Source: an uncultured Pseudomonadota bacterium
GTDB taxonomy: Bacteria; Myxococcota_A; Polyangia; Fen-1088
Direction of reading: 5' to 3'
Length of the DNA: 64,000 bases
NCBI GenBank assembly: GCA_963725905.1
Contig: CAVSAG010000002.1
Coordinates: forward strand, 804,962 to 868,961
Shown: one piece after another, positions 29,589 through 60,097 of the stretch
Layout of the letters: each line of letters begins with the position of its first letter
Position numbering within the stretch: the first letter of the stretch is position 1
Notes under the pieces: generated by a model
Told to the model about the DNA's origin: nothing
Database searches by the model: none
What the model saw: the letters and a program-made list of their open reading frames with translations, nothing else
Position numbers and translations under genes: made by a program

Positions 29589-30101
29589 TCAGCCCGTGCC
29601 GCCGGCGTCGACGTTCGAACCGCCGCTACCAGTTGCGCCGCCGCTGCCGGTCGATCCACCGCTTCCGGTCGTTCCCGCCGCGCCCGTCGTGCCGCCGGTC
29701 CCCGCCTTCCCCGCCGCACCCGTGGCGCCGCCGGTCCCGGTCGTCCCCCCGGCCCCGGTGGTTCCCGCGGCGCCCGTCGTTCCCGCTGCCCCCGTCGCGC
29801 CACCCTTGCCGGTCGCGCCACCCGTGCCGGGCGTGCCGCCCGTGCCTGGGGTGCCACCCGTCGCGGGGGTGCCGCCGGTCCCGGTCGTCCCGCCGGTCGC
29901 GGGAGGGGCGCCGGCCGCCCCCGTCGTGCCCGCGGCGCCGGGCGCGTCGACCGCGGCGTCCATGTTCGCCGGTGCGCCCGCGGCCCCATCGAGCGTGTCG
30001 TTCTGGAAGGTCGACTGCCCCTCCAGATACGCCGAGTCGTCCTCGCAGGAGATCAACGGGGCGGCGCAAACCAGAGCGGCTAGAAGCATGAGCCGTCGCA
30101 T
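29589..30101 (-). CDS. lipoprotein with Gly/Thr-rich (GTTGAAG) repeats
   Basis: [19 protein letters not shown] lipobox followed by more than 20 GT(T/P)G(A/T)xG repeats. Confidence 0.55.
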
Positions 30102-38632: not shown

Positions 38633-41600
38633 GTGATCGAGCGGGTCGTCGCCGGGCGGTTCCACCTTCTCGCCGAGGCCGGCGCGGGAGGGATGGGCGC
38701 CGTCTACCGCGCGCGCGATCTCGCCACCGGCGCGACGGTGGCGGTCAAGATCCTGACCGGCCGCGAGGCGCGCGAGGCGCAGCGGTTCGATCAGGAGGCC
38801 GCGATCCTGGCCGGGCTGGTTCATCCGGCCATCGTCCGTTACATCACCCACGGCGTCGCCGACAGCGGCGCGCGCTACATCGCCATGGAGTGGCTCGACG
38901 GCGAGGACCTGGCGGCGCGGCTCGCGCGCGAGCACCCGACCGTCGCCGAGACGGTGGCCATCGCCCGCCGCACGGCGGAGGCGCTGGCCCACGCGCACCG
39001 GGCGGGGGTCGTTCACCGCGACATCAAGCCGGGAAACCTGTTTCTCCCCGGTGGCGCCATCGAGCGGCTCAAGGTGCTCGACTTCGGCATCGCGCGGCTC
39101 ACCAGCGCCGCGCGAAAATTGACCCGCACCGGCTCGGTGATAGGCACGCCCGGCTACATGGCGCCCGAGCTCGTGCGCGGGGCGCGCGACATCACCCCGC
39201 GCGCCGACGTCTTCTCGCTCGGCTGCGTGATGTTCCAGTGTTTGACCGGCCGCGCGGTGTTCGAGGCCGAGGCGCCGACCGCGCTCTTGGCGAAGATCCT
39301 GCTGGCCGATGCGCCGCGCGTGCGCGATCTGGCGCCGGAGATCCCGGCGGCGGTCGACGACTGCGTGGCGCGCATGCTGGTCAGGGAGCCCGAACGGCGG
39401 CTCGCCGACGCGGCCGCCGTACTGGAGGCGCTGGGCGCGCTCGGTCCCCTCGGCGCCGGGCGCGCGGGCGGCGGCCTGCGCCCGGGCGCGCCGACCGCGG
39501 CGCTCACCGCGAGCGAGCGGCGGATCGCCTGCGTCGTCATCGCCGGACCGTCGGTCACCGGCGAGCGGCGCTGGAGCGGCGAGACACCGCCGGCCCGGCA
39601 GCCTGACGCGTGGATGGAGCCGGGCTCTGCCCGGCGGAGTCCATCGCATACTACAGACGAGGAGGTGGTCATCGCCGGGCAGCTGCGGCGGCTGGTCGCG
39701 ATCGAGGAGGAGCTGGTCCGCCAGCACGGCGCGCAGGTTCATCCGCTGCCCGACGGTTCGCTGGTGGTGTCGCTGCCCGAGCAGGAGCGGGCCACCGACC
39801 AGGCGGCGCGGGCGGCGCGCTGTGCGCTGGCGATGCGCAGCGCGCTGCCGGGCGTGGCGCTGGTCGTCTCGACGGGGCAGGGGCGCTTCGCGGCCTGGTC
39901 GGCGGTCGGTGCGGTGATCGACAACGGGATGCGTCTTCTGCGCGGGACGCCGCCGGGGGCGATCCGCCTCGATGACGTGGCCGCGGGGCTGCTCGACGCG
40001 CGCTTCGACGTCCGGCGCGAGGGGACCGCCCCCTACCTGCGTGCCGAGCGCGACGCGTTCGGCGTGCAGCGCCAGCTGCTCGGCAAGCAGACGCCGTTCG
40101 TCGGGCGCGGCCGCGAGATGTCGATGCTGACCAACCTCTATGCCGGCACCGTCGCCGAGTCGGTCGCCACGCCGGTGCTGGTGATCGGCTCGGCGGGCGC
40201 CGGCAAGTCGCGGCTGCGTCAGGAGCTGTGCGAGTGGGTGCAGCGGCAGCCCGATGGTGCGGAGGTTCTGTTCGGCGGCGTCGACTCGGTGGCGGCGGGG
40301 GCGCCGTTCGCCATGCTCGCCCGCGCCATCCGGCGGGCGGCCGGGATCGTCGACGGCGAGCCGCTCGAGGCGCGGCGCGACAAGCTGGCGGCGCGGGTCG
40401 CGCGTCACGTCGATCGCGAGGCGCGCGAGCGGGTCACCGAGTTCCTGGGGGAGATCGCCGACGTCCGTTTCGCGGACGGCAGCGAGGCGCTGCGGACGGC
40501 GCGCGGCAACCCGCAGCTGATGGGCGACGGCATGCGCCGCGCGTTCGAGGACTGGCTGGCGGCCGAGTGCGCCGCCCACCCGGTGCTGCTGGTGCTGGAG
40601 GATCTGCACTGGGGCGATCTGGGGACGGTGAGCTTCCTCGACGGCGCGCTCCGCAACCTTCACGATCAGCCGCTCCTGGTGCTGGCCCTGGCCCGTCCCG
40701 AGGTGGACGAGCGGTTCCCCGACGTCTGGACGGCGCGCCACCGCCAGACGATCCGGCTCGGCCCGCTCTCGCCGCGCGCCAGCGAGCAACTGGTGCGGCA
40801 GGCGCTGGCGGCGATCGGCGACGAGCTCCTGGCGCGGATCGTCGAGCGCGCGGACGGCAACCCCTTCTACCTCGAGGAGCTGATCCGCGCGGCGGCGGCC
40901 GGGCGCGCCGACGCGCTCCCCGACTCGGTGCTGGCGATGGTGCAAGCGCGGCTCGACGCCGAGGGGGGCGACGGCAAGCGGGTGCTGCGCGCGGCGGCGG
41001 TCTTCGGCGAGCGGTTTTCGCGCGCGGGGTTGGCGGCGCTGCTCGGCGGCGCGACCGGGATCGACGACGTCGCCGATGCGATCGAGCGACTGCTGGCGCG
41101 CGAGCTCTTCGCCCGGGCCCAGGCGCCCGCCCTCGAAGGGGACGTCGAGCTGATGTTCGCGCACGCGCTGGTCCGCGAGGCGGCCTATGCGATGCTCACC
41201 GACGAGGACCGGCTGCTTGGCCACCGGCTGGCGGGCGCCTGGCTGGAGCAGACGGGCGCCGCCGACGCGATGGTCCTGGCCGAGCACTTCCGGCGCGGAG
41301 ACGAGCCGGCGCGCGCGGCGCGCTGGTACGACCGGGCGGCGGCCCAGGCGCTCTCGGCCAACGACTTGTTGGCCGCGATCGACCGGGCCGAGCTGGGGCT
41401 CCGGGCTGGCGCCGACGCCGAGCTGGCGGGGAAGCTGCGGCTCATCGCGGCCGAGGCGCACGTCTGGCGCGGCGAGCTCGCCGAGGCCGAGCGCCTGGCC
41501 CTGGCCGCCGCCGCCGATCTCCCGGCCGGCGGCGCCGCCTGGCTGCGCGCGCTGGCGCAGGCGATCCTCGCGTCGGGCAAGCACGGCCGGCTGGAGAGCG

Positions 41601-42622
41601 TCGAAGAGCAGGTCCGGCTGGTCGAGAATTCGCCGCTCACGGCCGATCCGGCCGTCCGCAGCGCCCGGATCATCTCGCTGGCGTGGGGCGCCCACTTTCT
41701 GGTCTTCGGCGGGCGATACGCCATCGCCGATCCGCTGATCGCGGCCATCGGCGCGCTGGCGGGCGAGCGGGACGCCGCGCTCGATCCGCAGGCGCTGGGG
41801 CTCCTGCATCAGGTGCGGGCGGTACGGGCCTCCGCGGCCGGAGATCTCGGGCGCTGCTTGAGCGGCCTCGAATCGGCGCTGCAGGCGTTCGAGCAGGCGG
41901 GCGACCTGCGCAACGCCTGCGCCGTCCGCAACAACCTCGGCTACATGTACTCGGAGCTCGGTGACTTCCAGCGGGCCGAGGCGGCGCTGCGCCAGGCGCT
42001 CTCCGCCTGCGATCGGATGGGGCTCCACGATCTCTCGGCCGCCGTGCAGCACAACCTCGGGCGCGTCCTCGGCTTCGGGGCCGAGCTGGGGGAGGCGGAG
42101 CGGCTCGAACGGCTGGCCATCGAGGCGCTCCGCCGGCAGGGTGAACCGCGGCTCGAGGGGTTGGCGCGCGTCTACCTGGCCGAGATCCTGATCGCGCGCG
42201 GGGACTTCGCCGGCGCCGCCGGCGAGGCCTCGGCGGCGATCGCGGCGCTGGCGATCGCGCCGGCGATCCGGGTCGCGGCGCTGGGCGCGCTGGCACGCGC
42301 GCGGCTCGGCGGCGGCGATGCCGGCGGGGCGCTGGCGGCCGCGCGCGAGGCCCACGCGGCGCTCGAGCGGCTGGGCGAGATCGAGGAGGGCGAGTCGATC
42401 GTGCGGCTGACCTACGCCGAGGCGCTGGCGGCGGCCGGCGAGCACGCGCAGGCCCACGCCGCGCTGATCGTCGCCCGCGCGCGCCTCCTGGCCCGCGCCG
42501 AGCGGGTCGCCGACCTCGACTGGCGCCACCGCTTCCTGCACGAGGTCCCGGTCAACGCCCGCATCCTCGCCCTGGCCGCCGCGCCGCCGCAGCCTCCGAC
42601 GCGTTCGACCGCCGCCGCCTGA
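38633..42622 (+). CDS. Ser/Thr protein kinase / AAA ATPase / TPR multidomain (STAND-type) signalling protein
   Basis: Kinase motifs GAGGMGAVYRARD, VAVK, HRDIKPGNLFL, DFGIA, GTPGYMAPE. P-loop GSAGAGKSRL. Long TPR-like C-terminus. GTG start at 38633, 8 nt after the upstream stop. Confidence 0.85.
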   Translation: MIERVVAGRFHLLAEAGAGGMGAVYRARDLATGATVAVKILTGREAREAQRFDQEAAILAGLVHPAIVRYITHGVADSGARYIAMEWLDGEDLAARLAREHPTVAETVAIARRTAEALAHAHRAGVVHRDIKPGNLFLPGGAIERLKVLDFGIARLTSAARKLTRTGSVIGTPGYMAPELVRGARDITPRADVFSLGCVMFQCLTGRAVFEAEAPTALLAKILLADAPRVRDLAPEIPAAVDDCVARMLVREPERRLADAAAVLEALGALGPLGAGRAGGGLRPGAPTAALTASERRIACVVIAGPSVTGERRWSGETPPARQPDAWMEPGSARRSPSHTTDEEVVIAGQLRRLVAIEEELVRQHGAQVHPLPDGSLVVSLPEQERATDQAARAARCALAMRSALPGVALVVSTGQGRFAAWSAVGAVIDNGMRLLRGTPPGAIRLDDVAAGLLDARFDVRREGTAPYLRAERDAFGVQRQLLGKQTPFVGRGREMSMLTNLYAGTVAESVATPVLVIGSAGAGKSRLRQELCEWVQRQPDGAEVLFGGVDSVAAGAPFAMLARAIRRAAGIVDGEPLEARRDKLAARVARHVDREARERVTEFLGEIADVRFADGSEALRTARGNPQLMGDGMRRAFEDWLAAECAAHPVLLVLEDLHWGDLGTVSFLDGALRNLHDQPLLVLALARPEVDERFPDVWTARHRQTIRLGPLSPRASEQLVRQALAAIGDELLARIVERADGNPFYLEELIRAAAAGRADALPDSVLAMVQARLDAEGGDGKRVLRAAAVFGERFSRAGLAALLGGATGIDDVADAIERLLARELFARAQAPALEGDVELMFAHALVREAAYAMLTDEDRLLGHRLAGAWLEQTGAADAMVLAEHFRRGDEPARAARWYDRAAAQALSANDLLAAIDRAELGLRAGADAELAGKLRLIAAEAHVWRGELAEAERLALAAAADLPAGGAAWLRALAQAILASGKHGRLESVEEQVRLVENSPLTADPAVRSARIISLAWGAHFLVFGGRYAIADPLIAAIGALAGERDAALDPQALGLLHQVRAVRASAAGDLGRCLSGLESALQAFEQAGDLRNACAVRNNLGYMYSELGDFQRAEAALRQALSACDRMGLHDLSAAVQHNLGRVLGFGAELGEAERLERLAIEALRRQGEPRLEGLARVYLAEILIARGDFAGAAGEASAAIAALAIAPAIRVAALGALARARLGGGDAGGALAAAREAHAALERLGEIEEGESIVRLTYAEALAAAGEHAQAHAALIVARARLLARAERVADLDWRHRFLHEVPVNARILALAAAPPQPPTRSTAAA

Positions 42623-42659
42623 TTCGCCTCTCACGAATCGTCACATCTCCGGCGGCACC

Positions 42660-43770
42660 AACATCCGCGCAATCAAGGTCGAGCCGTCCGCGCGCCGACG
42701 CGCCCAACCCATCGGCGTCCCGGCGCAGACGACCGCACCCCCGCCGAATCAAGTCACGCGAGCGCCGCGGTCCCAGCGGAATCAAGTCGCGCGGTCGCCG
42801 CGGCGATTCGGCCGCCCACCACGCAACCCGCCGCGGTCCGCGCCCGACAACGGGACATGCGCGGAATCAAGACGGTGCGACGGCGTCAGCTCAACTTGCC
42901 CCTCGGGGCGCCACGCACCTGGGGTGGCGCTCGCAAGGGCGCCGGGCGGAAACCCCGCGGCCGTGCCTCGATGCCCCACGACACGCGGCCGAAGGTCGAT
43001 CCGCGATACCCGGTGCAGGTCACCATTCGCGCGACGCCGGGGCTGCCGTCGCTGCGCTCCCCCCGGCTGTTCGGGGCGCTCCGGCGCGCCATCGCGCGTG
43101 CGTCGGTCGACCGGTTCCGGGTGATTCACTTCTCGATCCAGCAGGACCACGGCCACTTCATCGTCGAGGGGGACGAAGCCCGGCGCGCCCGCGGGGGTAT
43201 GCACGGCCTGGCGATCCGCCTGGCGCTGGCAGTCAACCGCGCCCTCGGGCGCAAGGGGCAGGTCGTCGGCGACCGCTACCACGCGCGCCCGCTGACCACG
43301 CCGCGCCAGATGCGGACCAGCATGGTTTACGTGCTGCTCAACTTCCGCAAGCACCTCCGGGCGCCCGCGTGCATCGACCCGCGCAGCTCGGGGCCACAGT
43401 TTTCGGGGTGGCGGCGCGCGCCCGCGAGCGCCGACGCGATCACCCCCGCGATCACCGGCGCGATCACCGGCGCTCCTTCGGCGACGGCGTCGCCTGCCAC
43501 CTGGATGGCGCGCGTCGGATGGAGGCGCGCGGGCGGTCTGTTGCGGGTCGACGAGCACCCCGCCTCGGCGCCGCGCGCGCACCCAACTTGAATCCGCGGA
43601 TGTTGCCCGGCGCGGGCCGCAGCCACTTGAATCGCGGATGGGTCGCGGCGGGTCGCCCGCCTCGAGCGCGCCTGAAGCCGAAGGCGGCTTGAATCCGGAC
43701 GGCAGCGCTGAAGGCAGGGACGGGAGCGCTTGAAGGCGGGAAGGCATTTGAAACTTCTGCGCGGGCGACT
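42660..43770 (+). mobile_element. IS200/IS605-like (Y1 HUH) RAYT-type transposase with flanking REP-like repeat arrays
   Basis: Transposase CDS 42857..43591 flanked by 4 upstream copies of GAATCAAG(T/A)C and 3-5 downstream copies of CTTGAA(T/G)C. Confidence 0.45.
42857..43591 (+). CDS. REP-associated tyrosine transposase (IS200-like, PF01797 Y1_Tnp)
   Basis: PRYPVQVTIRATPGLPSLR...RFRVIHFSIQQDHGHFIVEGDE (HxH of the HUH motif)...YHARPLTTPRQMRTSMVYVLLNFRKH. Confidence 0.8.
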   Translation: MRGIKTVRRRQLNLPLGAPRTWGGARKGAGRKPRGRASMPHDTRPKVDPRYPVQVTIRATPGLPSLRSPRLFGALRRAIARASVDRFRVIHFSIQQDHGHFIVEGDEARRARGGMHGLAIRLALAVNRALGRKGQVVGDRYHARPLTTPRQMRTSMVYVLLNFRKHLRAPACIDPRSSGPQFSGWRRAPASADAITPAITGAITGAPSATASPATWMARVGWRRAGGLLRVDEHPASAPRAHPT

Positions 43771-43791
43771 ATGCTGCGCCACGAACAACTC

Positions 43792-44607
43792 ATGGCCACC
43801 GTCGACGTTCCGCTCAAGAGGGTCCGTTTCGGCCACACCGCCCGCAAAGATGCCTGGTGGGTCATGCCGCTGACGACGTTCGTGGTGTTTTCCGCGTTCA
43901 TCGTCTACGTCACCTGGGCGCTGTTTCAGGGGGAGAACTACAGCTACGGCAACTACCTGTCGCCGCTCTACTCGCCGGAGCTGTTCGGCAACTCGCCGCA
44001 CGCCTGGTTCGGCCCCTGGCGCTGGCCTTTCCTCCTCCCCTTCGTGCCCTTTATTAAATATTCGCCGGCGATGCTGATCCTGATCTTCCCGTTGGCCTTC
44101 CGCATGACCTGCTACTACTACCGCGGCGCCTACTACAAGGCGTTCTGGGCTGACCCGCCCGCCTGCACCGTCGGCGAGCCGCGCGACGAGTACCGCGGCG
44201 AGCAGAAGTGGCCGCTGCTCATCCAGAACGTGCACCGCTACGCGCTCTACTTCGCGCTCGTCTTCATCGTCCTTCTGTCGATCGACGTGGTGAAGGGGTT
44301 CATCTTCAACAACCCCAAGACCGGCCAGGCGACGTTTGGGATGGGCGTCGGGTCGCTGGTGCTGCTCCTCAACGTCGTGCTCATCGCCGGCTACACGCTC
44401 GGCTGCCACTCATTCCGCCACCTGGTGGCCGGGGTGATGGACACTTTTTCGAAGTCACCGTTGCGCAAGAAGGCCTACGACTGCGCGAGTTGCCTCAACC
44501 GGCACCATCCGAAGTGGGCCTGGTGCTCGCTGATCTGGGTCGGGCTCACCGACGTCTACATCCGCCTCTGCGCCAGCGGCGTCATCACCGACCTGAGGAT
44601 CTTCTAG
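43792..44607 (+). CDS. sdhC: succinate dehydrogenase / fumarate reductase cytochrome b subunit (b558 family, 5 TM)
   Basis: Polytopic membrane protein immediately upstream of sdhA with a 2-nt gap; conserved His in TM helices; alternative start at 43771. Confidence 0.7.
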   Translation: MATVDVPLKRVRFGHTARKDAWWVMPLTTFVVFSAFIVYVTWALFQGENYSYGNYLSPLYSPELFGNSPHAWFGPWRWPFLLPFVPFIKYSPAMLILIFPLAFRMTCYYYRGAYYKAFWADPPACTVGEPRDEYRGEQKWPLLIQNVHRYALYFALVFIVLLSIDVVKGFIFNNPKTGQATFGMGVGSLVLLLNVVLIAGYTLGCHSFRHLVAGVMDTFSKSPLRKKAYDCASCLNRHHPKWAWCSLIWVGLTDVYIRLCASGVITDLRIF

Positions 44608-44609
44608 CC

Positions 44610-46433
44610 ATGCCCGTTCACGAGACCCACGAGCACGACGTTCTGGTCATCGGCGCCGGCGGCGCCGGCCTGCGCGCGGCCATCGAGGCCTCGGCCACCG
44701 GTGTGTCGGTCGGCCTGGTCTGCAAGTCGCTGCTCGGCAAGGCCCACACCGTCATGGCGGAGGGCGGGATGGCGGCGGCGATGGCGCACGTCGACGACCG
44801 CGACAGCTGGAAAGTCCACTTCGCGGACACCATTCGCGGCGGCCAGTACCTCAACAACTGGCGGATGGCGGAGCTGCACGCCAAGGAGGCGCCCGATCGC
44901 GTGCGCGAGCTCGAGGCCTGGGGCGCCGTCTTCGATCGCACCAAGGACGGCCGCATCCTGCAGCGCAACTTCGGCGGCCACCGCTACCCGCGCCTGGCGC
45001 ACGTCGGCGATCGCACCGGCCTGGAGATGATCCGCACGCTGCAAGACCACGGCGTCCACCAGGGCTTCAAGGTCTACATGGAGCACACGATCACCAAGCT
45101 GTTCGTCGACGCCGGCCGGATCGCGGGCGCGTTCGGCTATGACCGGGAGCGCGGCAACCTGCGCGTCTTCAAGGCCAAGGCGGTCGTGCTGGCCACCGGC
45201 GGCGTCGGCCGCGCCTTCAAGATCACCAGCAACAGCTGGGAGTACACCGGCGACGGCTACGCGCTGGCCTACGACGCCGGCGCCGACCTGATGGACATGG
45301 AGTTCATCCAGTTCCACCCGACGGGGATGGTCTGGCCGCCGTCGGTCAAGGGCATCCTGGTGACCGAGGGGGTGCGCGGCGAGGGGGGCGTGCTGCGCAA
45401 CAAGGACGGCAAGCGCTTCATGTTCGACGAGATCCCAGACAACTACAAAGCGCAGACGGCCGACAGCGAGGAAGAGGGCTGGAAGTATACGCAGGGGGAC
45501 AAGAACTCGCGCCGGCCGCCCGAGCTGCTCACGCGCGACCACGTGGCGCGCAAGATCATGAAAGAGGTGCGCGAGGGGCGCGGCAGCCCGCACGGCGGCG
45601 TCTTCCTGGACATCGCCTGGATCAAGTCGCGCGTCCCCGGCGGCGCCGAGCACATCAAGAAGAAGCTCCCCAGCATGTATCACCAGTTCAAGGAGCTGGC
45701 GAACGTCGACATCACCGAGGTGCCGATGGAGGTGGGGCCCACCACCCACTACACGATGGGCGGCGTGCGCGTCGACGGCGACACGCAGATGTCGACGGTG
45801 CCGGGGCTGTTCGCGGCCGGCGAGTGCGCGGCTGGCCTCCACGGCGCGAACCGGTTGGGCGGCAACTCACTCTCCGACCTCCTGGTGTTCGGCAAGCGCG
45901 CCGGCGAGCACGCCGCCAAGTTCGCGCGCGAGCGCGGGCCCGTGAGCATCGACGCGACCGCCATCGACGCGGCCGAGCGGGTGGCGCTGGCGCCGTTCGA
46001 GCGGGCGGCGGCCGGCGGCGAGGCCGAGGCGCCCTACAAGATCCAGTACGAGCTGCAGGATCTGATGCAGGAGAACGTCGGCATCGTGCGCAACGACGCC
46101 GACATGCGCAAGGCGGTCGAGGGGATCCAGGCGCTCAAGGCGCGCGCGGCCAAGATCGCCGCCGGCGGCAACCGCGAGTACAACCCCGGCTGGCACACGG
46201 CGCTCGATCTCGCCAATCTGCTGACCTGCGCCGAGGTGATCGCGACGTCGGCGCTCGAGCGCAAGGAGTCGCGCGGCGGCCACTTCCGCGAGGACCACCC
46301 GGACAAGGATCCGAATTTCGCCACCTTCAACCACGTCGTGCGCAAGGGGGCAGGGGGACGGGCCGATCTGCGGCGCGAGACGATCCCGACTCTGCGCGAC
46401 GATCTCAAGCAGGTCGTCGAGGAGAACAAATAA
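44610..46433 (+). CDS. sdhA: succinate dehydrogenase / fumarate reductase flavoprotein subunit
   Basis: DVLVIGAGGAGLRAAIEA...covalent-FAD region...HYTMGGVRVD...RESRGGHFRED; ATG at 44610; the upstream 130 aa of the track ORF is filler. Confidence 0.9.
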   Translation: MPVHETHEHDVLVIGAGGAGLRAAIEASATGVSVGLVCKSLLGKAHTVMAEGGMAAAMAHVDDRDSWKVHFADTIRGGQYLNNWRMAELHAKEAPDRVRELEAWGAVFDRTKDGRILQRNFGGHRYPRLAHVGDRTGLEMIRTLQDHGVHQGFKVYMEHTITKLFVDAGRIAGAFGYDRERGNLRVFKAKAVVLATGGVGRAFKITSNSWEYTGDGYALAYDAGADLMDMEFIQFHPTGMVWPPSVKGILVTEGVRGEGGVLRNKDGKRFMFDEIPDNYKAQTADSEEEGWKYTQGDKNSRRPPELLTRDHVARKIMKEVREGRGSPHGGVFLDIAWIKSRVPGGAEHIKKKLPSMYHQFKELANVDITEVPMEVGPTTHYTMGGVRVDGDTQMSTVPGLFAAGECAAGLHGANRLGGNSLSDLLVFGKRAGEHAAKFARERGPVSIDATAIDAAERVALAPFERAAAGGEAEAPYKIQYELQDLMQENVGIVRNDADMRKAVEGIQALKARAAKIAAGGNREYNPGWHTALDLANLLTCAEVIATSALERKESRGGHFREDHPDKDPNFATFNHVVRKGAGGRADLRRETIPTLRDDLKQVVEENK

Positions 46434-53299: not shown

Positions 53300-54124
53300 T
53301 CAGCCCGCCTGAAGCTTGAAGTCGAATCCGATGCGCGGTGGCTCGCGGTCGGGATCGCACCGGTAGCGCGCGAAGTCGGTCACCCCCTCGGCGCGCAGGA
53401 AGTCCTCGTCGATGAGCGCCTGCCCGGTCAGCGCGTCGGGCGGCTTCGCGAACATCGCCACCATCGCGTCGGCCACGATCTCGGGCGTCCGCCACATCGA
53501 CCGATCGCCGAGGCCCCAGCGGATGGTCGCCTGGCTCTCGATCATCGTCGCCGGCCACAGAGCGTTCGCCGCCACCCCGCGCCCGCGCACCTCCTCCGCG
53601 ACCCCCTGCGCGACCAGCGTCATCCCGAACTTGCTGAGCGCATAGGCGACCTTGCCGGCGCCGGCGCGCGCGTCGACCGGCGGCGACAGCATCAGGATGT
53701 GCCCGAACCCGCGCGCCAGCATCGAGGGCAGCAGGTGGCGCGTGCAGGCGAAGGCTCCGCGCGCATTGACCGACATGACCAGATCGAACCGCTTCATCTC
53801 CGTCTCGGCGACCGATCGCCAGTAGAGCGCGCCCGCGTTGTTGACCAGGAAGTCGACCTGCCCGAACTTCTCGAGCGCCAGGCGCGCCGCCCGCTCGACC
53901 GCCGCGTCGTCGCGCACGTCCATCGCCACCGGCAGCGCGCGCCGCCCGAGCGCCTCGATCTCCCGCGCCGTCTCGTCGATCGTCCCCGGCAGCTTCGGAT
54001 CGGGCGCCACGGTCTTCGCCGCCACGACCACGTCGCACCCCTCGGCGGCCAGCCGGAGCGCCAGCGCCTTGCCGACGCCGCGCGACGCCCCGGTGACGAA
54101 CGCGACGCGCTTGGGGAACTTCAT
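53300..54124 (-). CDS. SDR-family short-chain dehydrogenase/reductase
   Basis: VAFVTGASRGVGKALA (TGxxxGxG)...NNAG...YALSKFG (YxxxK). Confidence 0.85.
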   Translation of the reverse strand: MKFPKRVAFVTGASRGVGKALALRLAAEGCDVVVAAKTVAPDPKLPGTIDETAREIEALGRRALPVAMDVRDDAAVERAARLALEKFGQVDFLVNNAGALYWRSVAETEMKRFDLVMSVNARGAFACTRHLLPSMLARGFGHILMLSPPVDARAGAGKVAYALSKFGMTLVAQGVAEEVRGRGVAANALWPATMIESQATIRWGLGDRSMWRTPEIVADAMVAMFAKPPDALTGQALIDEDFLRAEGVTDFARYRCDPDREPPRIGFDFKLQAG

Positions 54125-54159
54125 GCCCGCACTCTATCGCGCTTCGGTACAATCAGCCG

Positions 54160-54783
54160 GTGCGTGTTCGATCTCGGGTGCCGCGACCGCCGGTGGTCGT
54201 GTCGGCGGTCCTGTTCGCGGTCATTTCGGGGGTCATTCCGCTGCTCCTGAGCGGCTGCGCGGAGTACACGCCTGGCCTCCGGGCGACCGACCCGTACTCG
54301 CCCCAGAGCGCCTACGTCTACGGCCGCTTCTTCATCGACGCCGAGTCGAAGACGCTGGCGCTGGATGGACATCAGTCGATGGGATTCTCGGTTCGCTGCC
54401 GCGACGGCAACCGCTACGTCCTGCGCTTCTCCGCCCAGAGCCCGCTGCAGGTCATCCGGGTGGCGCCTTCCGTCTGCCAGATCGATGAGATCATCTACAC
54501 CGCCGCCTCCGGCACCACGCTCGGCCGCAAGCTGCCGCCGTTCCGCCTGCTCGAAAACGAATCCCTCGCTGCGGGCGGCGTCTACTACGTGGGCGACTTC
54601 TTCGCCCGCGGAACCAGCAAGTCGACCTACAACGGCCTCCGCGGCGAGATCAACTGGGACTGGCGCCTCACCGGCACCACCGACAATTACGACACGACGA
54701 CCGACCAGCTGAAACGCCGCTTCCCGAGCTTCGCCTCCGCCGCGACCGAAAACCGTATGACCCACGGCGCGAACGTCTACTGA
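54160..54783 (+). CDS. hypothetical lipoprotein
   Basis: VLFAVISGVIPLLLSGCAEY lipobox. Confidence 0.55.
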   Translation: MRVRSRVPRPPVVVSAVLFAVISGVIPLLLSGCAEYTPGLRATDPYSPQSAYVYGRFFIDAESKTLALDGHQSMGFSVRCRDGNRYVLRFSAQSPLQVIRVAPSVCQIDEIIYTAASGTTLGRKLPPFRLLENESLAAGGVYYVGDFFARGTSKSTYNGLRGEINWDWRLTGTTDNYDTTTDQLKRRFPSFASAATENRMTHGANVY

Positions 54784-58432: not shown

Positions 58433-60097
58433 ATGACAGCTTGCCCTCGCTCTCGGTATCGCCTGCTGGCCGGGTTCACTCTCCTGGTTGCCGCCTGCCA
58501 GGGGAAGGCCGGGAGCAGCGGCGATGGCGGTGAGTCGACCGGCGGCCAGGGCGGGAGCGGCCAGAGCGCTGGCGCGTCGGGCACCGGTGGCACGACGGGC
58601 AGCGGCGGCGCGACCGGCAGCGGCGGCGCGACCGGCAGCGGTGGCACGACGACCGGCAGCGGTGGCACGACCGGCAGCGGCGGCGCGATCGCCAGCGGCG
58701 GCGCGACCGGCAAGGGCGGCTCCGGGGGGACGACGTCCAGCGGTGGCACGACCGGCAGCGGCGGCGCGACGTCCAGCGGTGGCACGACCGGCAGCAGCGG
58801 CGCGGCCGGGAATGGTGCGCGAGGCGGCTCGGGCGGGACGGGATCGGGCGGCACCGGCGCCGCCGGGACTTCAGGCGCCGGCGGGACGTCGGGGGCCGCG
58901 GGTGGCAACGGTTCCTGCATCGGCTCGGCGATGCTGAACAAGCTCGGCAAGAACCGACTGCTCGTGGGGGTCTCGACCTCGGACGTGGCAGCGGCCATGG
59001 CGCCGTTCGACATCCGGTACCTCTACATCTCGGGCGGCCTGTTCGATTCGGCGACGCCCTGCACGGCGTGCGGCAGCGCCTGCGTCGCCGCCGGGAACGC
59101 CTGCACCAGCGGCTGCGCCTGGTGGGGCTGCTACAACACGCCGCCCGGGATGTACGCGACGTACTTCATGCAGGCGGCCGCCAAGAATTCACAGGTGCCG
59201 ATGTTCACGTATTACGAGCTCCTGCAGACGGCGAAGAACACCTTCTCCGGTTTCAGCGAGGGCTCGGCCGAGGCGACGCAGGCGGCGACCAGCACCGCGC
59301 TCATGACCCGCTACTACGCCGACTGGCGCTTCCTGCTGCAGGCGATCGGGCAAAACAAGGCGCTCTTGCACATCGAGCCCGACTTCTGGGGCTACGCGCG
59401 GCAGGCAGGGGCGGCGACGGCGGCGGCCGCGGTGCAGAGCGCGAACGCGACCGACTGCGGCTCGCTCCCCAACACGATCGGCGGGATGGGGCAGTGCCTC
59501 ATCTCGATGGTGCGCAAGTACGCGCCGAACGCGCTGGTCGGCCTGTCGGCGTCGGCGTGGAACGTCGCCGGTAACACGAACACAAAGACCGACGTCACCA
59601 CCGACGCCAAGGCGCTGGCGACCTTCCTCGCCGCCTGCGGGCAGTCGAGCGCCGACTTCATCGTGGTCGAGACGAGCGACAGAGACGCCGGCTACTACCA
59701 GACGGTGCAGAGCCAGAACAACTGGTGGGACGCGACCGACGCCAAGCTACCCGACTACGCGCAGGATCTGACCTGGGTGAAGGCGCTCACCGAGGCGCTG
59801 GGGACGCCGGCGCTCTACTGGCAGACGCCGCTCGGCAACGCCAGCCAGAACAACACGGCCGACCACTACCAGGACAACCGCGTCGACTACTTCTTCGGCG
59901 GCAGCGCCGCCGGCGTCGGCAGCACGGCGCCGATCACGGTCCCGGCGCACTGGAGCGCGCTCGCCTCCGCGCACGTCGTCGGCGTCGCGTTCGGCGCGGG
60001 CGAGGGGACGCAGACCACGCCCGAGACGGACGGCGGCTACCTCATCTCGAAGACCAAGAGCTACGTCTCGGGCGGCGGTCAGGCGCTCTGCCCGTGA
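58433..60097 (+). CDS. lipoprotein with Gly/Ser/Thr-rich linker and probable TIM-barrel glycoside-hydrolase-like domain
   Basis: LLVAACQG lipobox, (GSGGTTGSGGAT)n linker, then RYLYISGG...VPMFTYYEL...LHIEPDFWGYA reminiscent of GH-family catalytic domains (family not assigned). Confidence 0.6.
   Translation: MTACPRSRYRLLAGFTLLVAACQGKAGSSGDGGESTGGQGGSGQSAGASGTGGTTGSGGATGSGGATGSGGTTTGSGGTTGSGGAIASGGATGKGGSGGTTSSGGTTGSGGATSSGGTTGSSGAAGNGARGGSGGTGSGGTGAAGTSGAGGTSGAAGGNGSCIGSAMLNKLGKNRLLVGVSTSDVAAAMAPFDIRYLYISGGLFDSATPCTACGSACVAAGNACTSGCAWWGCYNTPPGMYATYFMQAAAKNSQVPMFTYYELLQTAKNTFSGFSEGSAEATQAATSTALMTRYYADWRFLLQAIGQNKALLHIEPDFWGYARQAGAATAAAAVQSANATDCGSLPNTIGGMGQCLISMVRKYAPNALVGLSASAWNVAGNTNTKTDVTTDAKALATFLAACGQSSADFIVVETSDRDAGYYQTVQSQNNWWDATDAKLPDYAQDLTWVKALTEALGTPALYWQTPLGNASQNNTADHYQDNRVDYFFGGSAAGVGSTAPITVPAHWSALASAHVVGVAFGAGEGTQTTPETDGGYLISKTKSYVSGGGQALCP

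Follow-up and report, generated by a model that had tools for sequence, protein, structure and literature searches.

A multicopy inverted-repeat element carrying a RAYT-like Y1 HUH gene in Polyangia, and its proposed mobilisation by the encoded protein

The usual teaching on Y1 HUH transposases is that they work on single strands, require hairpins and leave no target duplication; their RAYT relatives (transposases associated with repetitive extragenic palindromic, REP, sequences) count as domesticated genes with one copy each. A RAYT is typically inherited vertically as a single copy, and the REP 16-mers that flank it are abundant genome-wide (Nunvar 2010, PMC2817692; Bertels 2017, PMC5581495). 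A second arrangement, the TIRYT/TIRtron of Di Nocera et al. (2013, PMC3733652), places RAYT-like genes between inverted repeats, which in some hosts also form small repeat families. Most TIRYTs fall into TnpA-Y1 subclass 2.1, and a further group, subclass 2.3, has a per-genome copy number above five, signs of recent spread, no REPs and undefined ends (Quentin et al., 2018, PMC6006769). Here we analyse a Y1 HUH gene and the short repeats around it in a 64,000-nt stretch of contig CAVSAG010000002.1 (positions 804,962 to 868,961, hereafter the window) from an uncultured bacterium of the Polyangia. The short repeats are almost certainly parts of the ends of a multicopy, inverted-repeat-bounded element of ~1.0-1.1 kb. 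Window positions 42628 to ~43725 quite probably represent one copy of this insertion-sequence-like Polyangia element, with the Y1 protein mobilising it via its ends. The closest described concept is the TIRtron/TIRYT, and the element is best described as TIRYT-like, with a target signature that can be defined and with what looks like the complete behaviour of an insertion sequence.

The 17-mer CTCTCACGAWTCGYCAC marks the left end and, inverted, the right end of paralogous copies and occurs nowhere else in their 6.7-kb loci. It is the outer part of a longer imperfect repeat: in 10 intact paralogues the leftmost 52 nt, aligned with the reverse-complemented rightmost 52 nt, show a mean identity of 77%, and the inner ends of the inverted repeats read CAACATCCGCGCAATCAAG (left) and CTTGAATCCGCGGATGTTG (right). 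On the right-hand side paralogues have 1-4 tandem 39-bp units beginning with CTTGAATCCGCGGATGTTG, followed by the right inverted repeat. In the window (Table 1) the left arm pairs with 43572-43605 as an inverted repeat, and the halves of a 33-bp duplication lie at 42739-42770 and 42772-42803. The second left unit is present, in a 32-copy alignment, only in the window and in loci L001, L003, L006, L008, L011, L013, L016, L020, L021, L029 and L036. The inner parts of the inverted repeats correspond to the first upstream copy of the short motif and to the last downstream unit; the other motif copies originate from the 33-bp left duplication and from right-end tandem amplification of the 39-bp unit. 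GANTC sites, as a separate observation, are ~3.3 times denser inside elements than outside (11.3/kb versus 3.4/kb; window 42628-43770 and the copies in L001-L060), and GAATC or GATTC is present in the inverted-repeat core and in each motif copy.

Table 1. Features of the element copy in the window.
Feature	Position	Strand	Remarks
Outer 17-mer of the left terminal inverted repeat, CTCTCACGAATCGTCAC	42628-42644	+	Sole window match with up to 3 mismatches allowed
Full left terminal inverted repeat, ~50 bp, imperfect	42628-42677	+	Inner end is CAACATCCGCGCAATCAAG (42659-42677), upstream motif copy 1
Two tandem 32-33 bp units with motif copies 2 (42746) and 3 (42779)	42739-42803	+	84% identity
Open reading frame, RAYT-like Y1 HUH protein, 244 aa	42857-43591	+	Alignment, profile search, structure model
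In-frame 12-nt tandem repeat ITPAITGAITGA	43421-43468	+	Variable linker; pLDDT ~54 around residues 190-205
Right-end tandem unit 1, 39 bp, ACTTGAATCCGCGGATGTTGCCCGGCGCGGGCCGCAGCC	43586-43624	+	Holds the stop codon and the 10-bp palindrome ATCCGCGGAT
Degenerate rest of the right end	43625-43725	+	Unit 2 recognisable to ~43641; decayed third copy GCTTGAATCCGG at 43687-43698

The element is highly repeated in related genomes of soil myxobacteria. Relatives were scanned with one genome per species (135 relatives), and 80 loci were kept. Thirty-six of the 80 kept loci, with 87-95% amino acid identity, belong to a single metagenome-assembled genome (MAG), MFD06714.bin.2.117 (CAWHRJ01, Polyangia), which holds at least 35 copies; four other Polyangia MAGs have 6-11 loci each among the 80 kept. 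When 31 loci were aligned with the window, similarity started and stopped at the inverted repeats: the motif architecture inside was conserved and the DNA outside was unrelated, as are the flanking genes of the different copies to each other. This distribution bears on a purely local explanation, in which the repeats are operators or promoter elements for autoregulation that arose by local duplication and have nothing to do with mobility. Some copies do stem from local tandem duplication, and one overlaps the start of the gene and another its stop, as such an explanation would have it. However, more than 35 unrelated loci share this architecture, and the genes next to it differ from locus to locus. 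The multicopy distribution refutes the local explanation as a stand-alone account, and we find it hardly credible. A regulatory role of some motif copies is compatible with a mobile element and does not replace it.

A first-pass annotation of the window had described a RAYT between asymmetric arrays of short REP-like repeats, and its observation of short repeats around the gene is confirmed. The four upstream copies that it counted are present, on the + strand: CAATCAAG at 42670-42677 and GAATCAAG at 42746-42753, 42779-42786 and 42864-42871. The fourth, which coincides with codons 3-5 of the open reading frame (ORF; GGA ATC AAG), overlaps the start codon in its 17-nt form ACATGCGCGGAATCAAG (42855-42871), which includes the ATG at 42857. 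Of the three to five downstream copies that had been counted, three are real, namely CTTGAATC at 43587-43594, 43626-43633 and 43688-43695, all copies of SAWTCAAG on the - strand; the stop codon (TGA, 43589-43591) does fall within the first. The remaining two, CTTGAAGG (43729) and TTTGAAAC (43748), are host DNA conserved with the orthologous locus L016. A sigma-70-like site, TTGAAA-16-TATGCT, occupies 43748-43775, directly upstream of an sdhC-like gene (43771-44607), and is likewise conserved with L016; this promoter-like site in host DNA, with TTGAAA as its -35 hexamer, accounts for the supposed fourth and fifth copies. Across the 64-kb window SAWTCAAG has nine matches, seven of them within 1.03 kb around ORF 42857-43591 and two elsewhere; shuffled sequence gave 2.6 +/- 1.75 matches, and none of 100 shuffles reached nine.

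The interpretation attached to these repeats was partly supported. According to it, the gene is a RAYT with cognate REP sequences and bacterial interspersed mosaic elements (BIMEs); spelled out, this would make it a domesticated single-copy gene that spreads repeats of the GAATCAAG type. The protein is indeed closest to TnpA-REP, family members carry the Joint Genome Institute (JGI) label 'REP element-mobilizing transposase RayT', a repeat stands in inverted copies on either side of the gene, and the TAG beside the ends (see below) recalls the GTAG head of REPs (PMC3733652). A RAYT-like gene between inverted repeats therefore stands, but the repeats are not REP/BIME sequences. Dispersal was assessed on a sample of genome sequence of ~350 kb, made up of 288 kb of flanks and 63 kb of the window. 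SAWTCAAG has a density of 3.08/kb within element copies versus 0.028/kb in the 288 kb of flanking genome, which is chance level, and CGCGGATGTTG occurs 66 times inside elements and not once outside in the whole sample. The count of the motif across the genome that had been suggested as a check thus finds it, in this sample, confined to element copies. Motifs found at this locus alone had been said to mean simple local duplication; what we see is a modified form of that outcome, since the motif occurs only inside element copies, at many loci.

Folding speaks in the same direction. REP/BIME sequences are defined by such gene-independent dispersal through the genome and by hairpins, a REP being an imperfect palindrome of 20-40 nt. 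Motif units and both ends, folded as DNA on both strands, gave no hairpin better than shuffled sequence (z -0.6 to +0.9); the left end of L036 has a hairpin with z = -3.1 that is not conserved in the window. The near-palindromic arms that had been pointed out, CGGAATC (42777) and GATTCGG (42805), exist, but they are located in the 33-bp tandem duplication and fold with z = 0.12, and the sole palindrome in the 39-bp units is the 10-bp ATCCGCGGAT. Finally, a RAYT of the REPtron kind is present as a single copy or as few divergent copies, whereas here 36 loci were found in one related MAG and the gene is multicopy together with its flanks. The tyrosine motif, Y---N-RKH, also departs from the class-2 form Y---NP (PMC6006769 Table 1). 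The REP/BIME explanation is already contradicted by these results and we rate it as very improbable. Searches of 42000-44300 against Rfam gave no match at E <= 1, and tblastn against plasmid sequences gave no match.

The assignment of the protein as a Y1 HUH transposase of RAYT-like type is borne out by the family profile, by Foldseek and by Pfam Y1_Tnp (PF01797), which matches 60/67 family members. Its catalytic features are H98-G-H100 (the HUH motif), E104 and Y158, the last within YVLLNFRKH; H98, H100, E104, R140, Y158 and D174 do not vary across 67 aligned, diverse family members. Among the traits that mark the family off are a QLxL..WGGxRxGAGRKP motif at the N-terminus, a DPxSS motif in the tail and the tyrosine motif given below. 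The window protein alone stays below the Pfam threshold and reaches E = 0.002 with NCBIfam REP_Tyr_transpos (18 bits versus a cut-off of 80). The family comprises 4871 clusters (50% identity, E <= 0.001), and a search with its profile returned Escherichia coli TnpA-REP (4er8, E = 5.7e-4) and also ISDra2 TnpA. An AlphaFold (AF2) model of the window protein has a predicted local distance difference test score (pLDDT) of 85.6; its top Foldseek match is 4er8_A (E = 9.7e-5, target-normalised TM 0.62, root-mean-square deviation 2.6 Å), followed by IS200/IS605 TnpA structures. The protein thus combines an HUH motif and a single catalytic tyrosine on an IS200-like fold, as is characteristic of the Y1 HUH superfamily. 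The consensus around the tyrosine is YVLxNxRKH, in which the asparagine of the class-2 signature Y---NP is kept and the proline is absent. Among the copies the ORF is 232-246 aa long. The public gene call (P0004) begins at M39 (42971) and gives 206 aa without the conserved N-terminal motif. ATG 42857 is the likelier start; the motif that a start at M39 removes is family-wide.

The Y1 HUH fold, the small multicopy single-gene format and a YTAG whose distance from the end is fixed, in loose resemblance to the TTAC of IS608, are points of likeness to canonical IS200/IS605 elements such as IS608 and ISDra2. Such an element would move by 'peel and paste' of a single strand with subterminal hairpins; it would insert 3' of a fixed tetranucleotide and have neither inverted repeats nor a target duplication. 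The anatomy contradicts this. The ends here are ~50-bp inverted repeats and not direct hairpins, none of the hairpins is conserved, 5-7 bp direct repeats are present and the TAG signature is symmetric; the terminal hairpins of a canonical IS200, the alternative that had been named beside the REP reading, are not seen at the locus either. The protein also differs, at 230-245 aa with N- and C-terminal extensions and with Y---N versus Y---Q (PMC6006769 Table 1), and no tnpB gene is present. A canonical IS200/IS605 element is, on this evidence, extremely unlikely.

The sequences that adjoin the copies define a target signature. The outer 7 nt on the left and right agree at 6-7 positions in 29% of 34 two-ended elements versus 1.8% of mismatched pairs; examples of 7-nt direct repeats are CCGGCCG (L003), CCCAGGG (L018), CCGTCCT (L043) and GCCAGAC (L072). 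Further direct repeats appear when an offset of 1 nt is allowed, and intact copies carry direct repeats of 5-7 bp. A CTA begins 6-9 nt outward (mode 8) at 53/87 ends versus ~1 expected. The typical flank can be written (Y)TAG-N7-[element]-N7-CTA(R), the 7-mer having the weak palindromic consensus CCGNCGG. Of 59 flanking TAG/CTA triplets, 34 serve as stop codons for genes that look real and run towards the element. Six elements (L003, L012, L019, L039, L042 and L043) have gene stops on both sides that would lie only 7 nt apart in the would-be empty site. The window element itself starts 5 nt after the TGA (42620-42622) of an upstream kinase gene.

We infer the Y1 protein to be the mobilising enzyme, and likewise the position of the cut and a role of the short motifs as its binding sites. 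In the proposed mechanism, the most economical one, the element would be autonomous and a Y1 dimer would bind repeated GAATC-core sites in both ends; palindromes are present at these putative sites, the outer 17-mer holding the 9-bp ACGAWTCGT and the 39-bp unit ATCCGCGGAT. Cleavage and joining would use a palindromic target, TAG-N7-CTA, and take place beside TAG, ~7 nt outside the inverted repeats; there the two active sites of the dimer could place nicks 7 nt apart on the two strands. The 5'-phosphotyrosine polarity would be compatible with the 3'-OH of the element being joined to the 5' ends of the target, yielding a 7-bp duplication, so that insertion would leave flanking direct repeats of 5-7 bp. 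Gene-less elements with the same ends, which resemble miniature inverted-repeat transposable elements (MITEs), would probably be moved by the same protein. We lean towards the Y1 protein being a transposase that acts in this way. Much more tentative, and to our minds somewhat doubtful, is the wider proposal of an uncharacterised family of Y1 HUH enzymes that carries out inverted-repeat-dependent transposition into double-stranded DNA, generates target duplications by HUH chemistry and drives MITE-like derivatives.

Inverted repeats, short direct repeats and a palindromic target are classic signatures of DDE transposases. DDE insertion sequences with palindromic targets, for example those of the IS5 type with YTAR, have inverted repeats, short direct repeats and a symmetric CTAG/YTAR target. 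The main rival explanation is that the units are non-autonomous and are moved by an unlinked transposase, for example a DDE enzyme, the Y1 gene being cargo, a regulator or an accessory nuclease. The inverted repeats, the 5-7 bp direct repeats and the palindromic target would all fit a DDE enzyme, gene-less MITE-like relatives exist, and Y1 enzymes are not known to yield target duplications. However, the only conserved ORF of the element is the Y1 HUH enzyme, and no DDE protein is encoded. No other transposase gene was seen in inverted-repeat-bounded units across ~1.2 Mb of loci, which is a small sample, and the ORFs next to repeats in metagenome loci are host genes, such as a glycogen-debranching-like ORF in L105. 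In addition, the Y1 ORF is intact in 31/36 copies and under purifying selection, and the repeats stay paired with the Y1 gene down to 49% protein identity (L117, in which the same inverted repeat flanks the homologue). We consider an unlinked transposase unlikely.

Several observations weigh against mobilisation by the Y1 protein as proposed. Known Y1 HUH enzymes (IS200/IS605, TnpA-REP) act on single-stranded hairpins and produce no target duplication (bioRxiv 10.1101/2022.12.15.520654). The element lacks a conserved hairpin and combines inverted and direct repeats, which is a DDE hallmark, and in this clade the HUH motif is H-G-H, with glycine in place of the hydrophobic residue, in 48/48 close copies. 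Three homologues with 45-47% identity (L201, L203 and L204) are without inverted repeats, so the architecture is clade-specific. The same 7-mer recurs at different loci (L010/L012/L014, L004/L009 and L005/L008), the pairs that share it all falling within the lowest 8% of pairwise distances, and CTAG stands on both ends of L140 and L193 despite differing 7-mers; simple target duplication explains neither fully. Element ends were searched for a match or complement to their own flanking 7-mer and none was found, which leaves a guide pairing of the IS608 style with the 7-mer unsupported, and it was rejected. No empty site was recovered among the loci: L080 shares one gene with window 53300-54200 and its synteny stops before the insertion point. 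Nor was a transposition intermediate observed in the sequences examined. Finally, several copies are adjoined by tandem units of TAG plus 7-mer, which count among the unexplained points. These could be excision footprints (N7-CTAG-N7) or pre-existing arrays; the former is possible because element termini CT...AG together with the duplication would give N7-CTAG-N7. The units are 10-11 nt long (TAG plus a GC-rich 7-mer) and are seen at L033 2620-2648, L055 2775-2799 and L017 3803-3825, and also in the flanks of L005 and L011.

The homologues without inverted repeats show one further feature. In L201 and L203 (both ~1485-1503) WTTCAAG stands directly before the ATG (..TTTCAAGATG.. and ..ATTCAAGATG..). 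It echoes GAATCAAG at the start of the window gene and could be a conserved 5' signal or a coincidence.

Gene-less occurrences of the same ends also exist. When metagenome contigs were scanned for exact copies of the 17-mer, at least 121 matches appeared. Among the matches listed, 33 carry the CTA signature, including 6 with a Y1 gene, ~7 gene-less pairs and 13 at contig ends. A further 85 of those listed have no flank signature; they come from lower-GC contigs without a CTA flank and were treated as chance. Gene-less inverted-repeat pairs are 115-674 bp apart and have the same CTAG-N7 flanks. L163 (304 bp), for example, has the perfect direct repeat CGCTCCG, with CTAG-CGCTCCG on both sides. 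These units fall into families that share the 17-mer, ATYT and CTAG-N7: group A (L106, L112, L127, L154 and L162), group B (L100, L105, L109, L110, L150, L151, L163, L166 and L185), group C (L153, L171 and L179) and group D (L091, L103 and L184). Sequences of groups A and C always run into a contig break after 120-245 nt, suggestive of a very high copy number. In L200 (~1165-1835) and L158 a truncated IS110-like ORF (..CAIDLGGRKSQVCVRSPDG..) starts ~270 nt inside an inverted repeat. The ORF in L200 is probably a secondary insertion, and an IS110-family element may target these ends.

The gene is maintained. In the MAG with most copies, 31 of 36 ORFs are intact, and the median pairwise non-synonymous divergence (dN) is 0.030 and synonymous divergence (dS) 0.164, a ratio of 0.18. 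L016, in a sister MAG, is the locus orthologous to the window, with synteny over 39863-43604 and 43716-46358 at 91-93% identity; because it is a syntenic orthologue, the insertion is older than the divergence of the two genomes. For the window ORF compared with L016, dN is 0.024 and dS 0.130, a ratio of 0.19; the ratios of the flanking kinase (0.14) and of the sdhA-like gene (0.18) are similar. For the sdhC-like gene dS was 0.39, which looks inflated by misalignment and was not used. These ratios indicate that the window ORF is under purifying selection.

The left inverted repeat of the window copy is an exact match to the 17-mer, and no right repeat is found in the window with up to 3 mismatches allowed. 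In L016 the right repeat is intact; where this locus has the last 31 nt of the element plus ~330 nt of intergenic DNA, the window has ~120 unrelated nt, in which the second 39-bp unit decays after 43641 and a third, degenerate copy stands at 43687, before homology resumes at ~43716-43726. Since the right end is lost, the window copy is one-ended and probably immobile, yet its gene is still intact and constrained.

How the element relates to the described systems can now be stated more closely. Like a TIRtron, it has a RAYT-like Y1 gene between terminal inverted repeats instead of REP hairpins; intact copies show this arrangement, without REPs, and the window copy keeps the left repeat only. 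Unlike in TIRtrons, the inverted repeat is unrelated to the common motif GGGGWSAS, the protein model is without a helix-turn-helix-like C-terminal domain, and the whole unit is highly multicopy, with direct repeats and TAG-N7-CTA flanks. The TIRtron paper makes no mention of direct repeats, target sites or myxobacteria (PMC3733652), and we found no paper linking tyrosine transposases with myxobacteria. Judged by motifs, the protein does not belong to subclass 2.1, which has NHVH/NH[YF]H and YIELNP/Y[IV]HLNP where DHGH/DHLH and YVLxNxRKH are found here. With subclass 2.3 it shares a multicopy class-2 (RAYT-like) Y1 gene; that subclass, however, is known from Chromatiales/Alteromonadales and has proteins of ~325 aa with NHYH and insertions, whereas here the proteins have ~235 aa and DH(L/G)H, and the ends are defined. 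The RAYT/REPtron system of E. coli TnpA-REP (4er8) is the best structural and profile match, its gene is likewise bracketed by inverted repeat copies and a conserved TAG stands beside the recognised sequence; the element protein, too, may mobilise gene-less partners. It differs in that here the gene itself proliferates and the repeats are neither hairpins nor, in the sampled sequence, independently dispersed.

The family has thousands of sequence clusters in soil metagenomes, one clade of which looks clearly like an insertion sequence in its behaviour, with dozens of copies, defined inverted-repeat ends, short direct repeats beside them, a sharp palindromic target signature and gene-less derivatives. 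If the Y1 protein is the transposase, HUH transposition chemistry would be wider than thought and the element would be a tractable model for DNA recognition and movement by TIRYTs and RAYTs. Inverted-repeat-dependent HUH transposition, if true, would connect IS200/IS605 and REP/RAYT systems in mechanism with the classical elements that have inverted repeats and target duplications. If the Y1 protein is not the transposase, an unknown transposase with a very specific CTAG-N7-CTAG target would act in Polyangia. In practice the elements break short-read assemblies, and in public annotation their genes are mis-called (truncated at M39) and labelled 'RayT'.

Elsewhere in the window, 29720-29990 and 58540-58800 are 65-70% similar to the flanks of L020, L023 and L052. 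They lie in or near a very GC-rich stretch at 28-30 kb (GC 0.78-0.80) and may be another dispersed repeat or low-complexity coding sequence.

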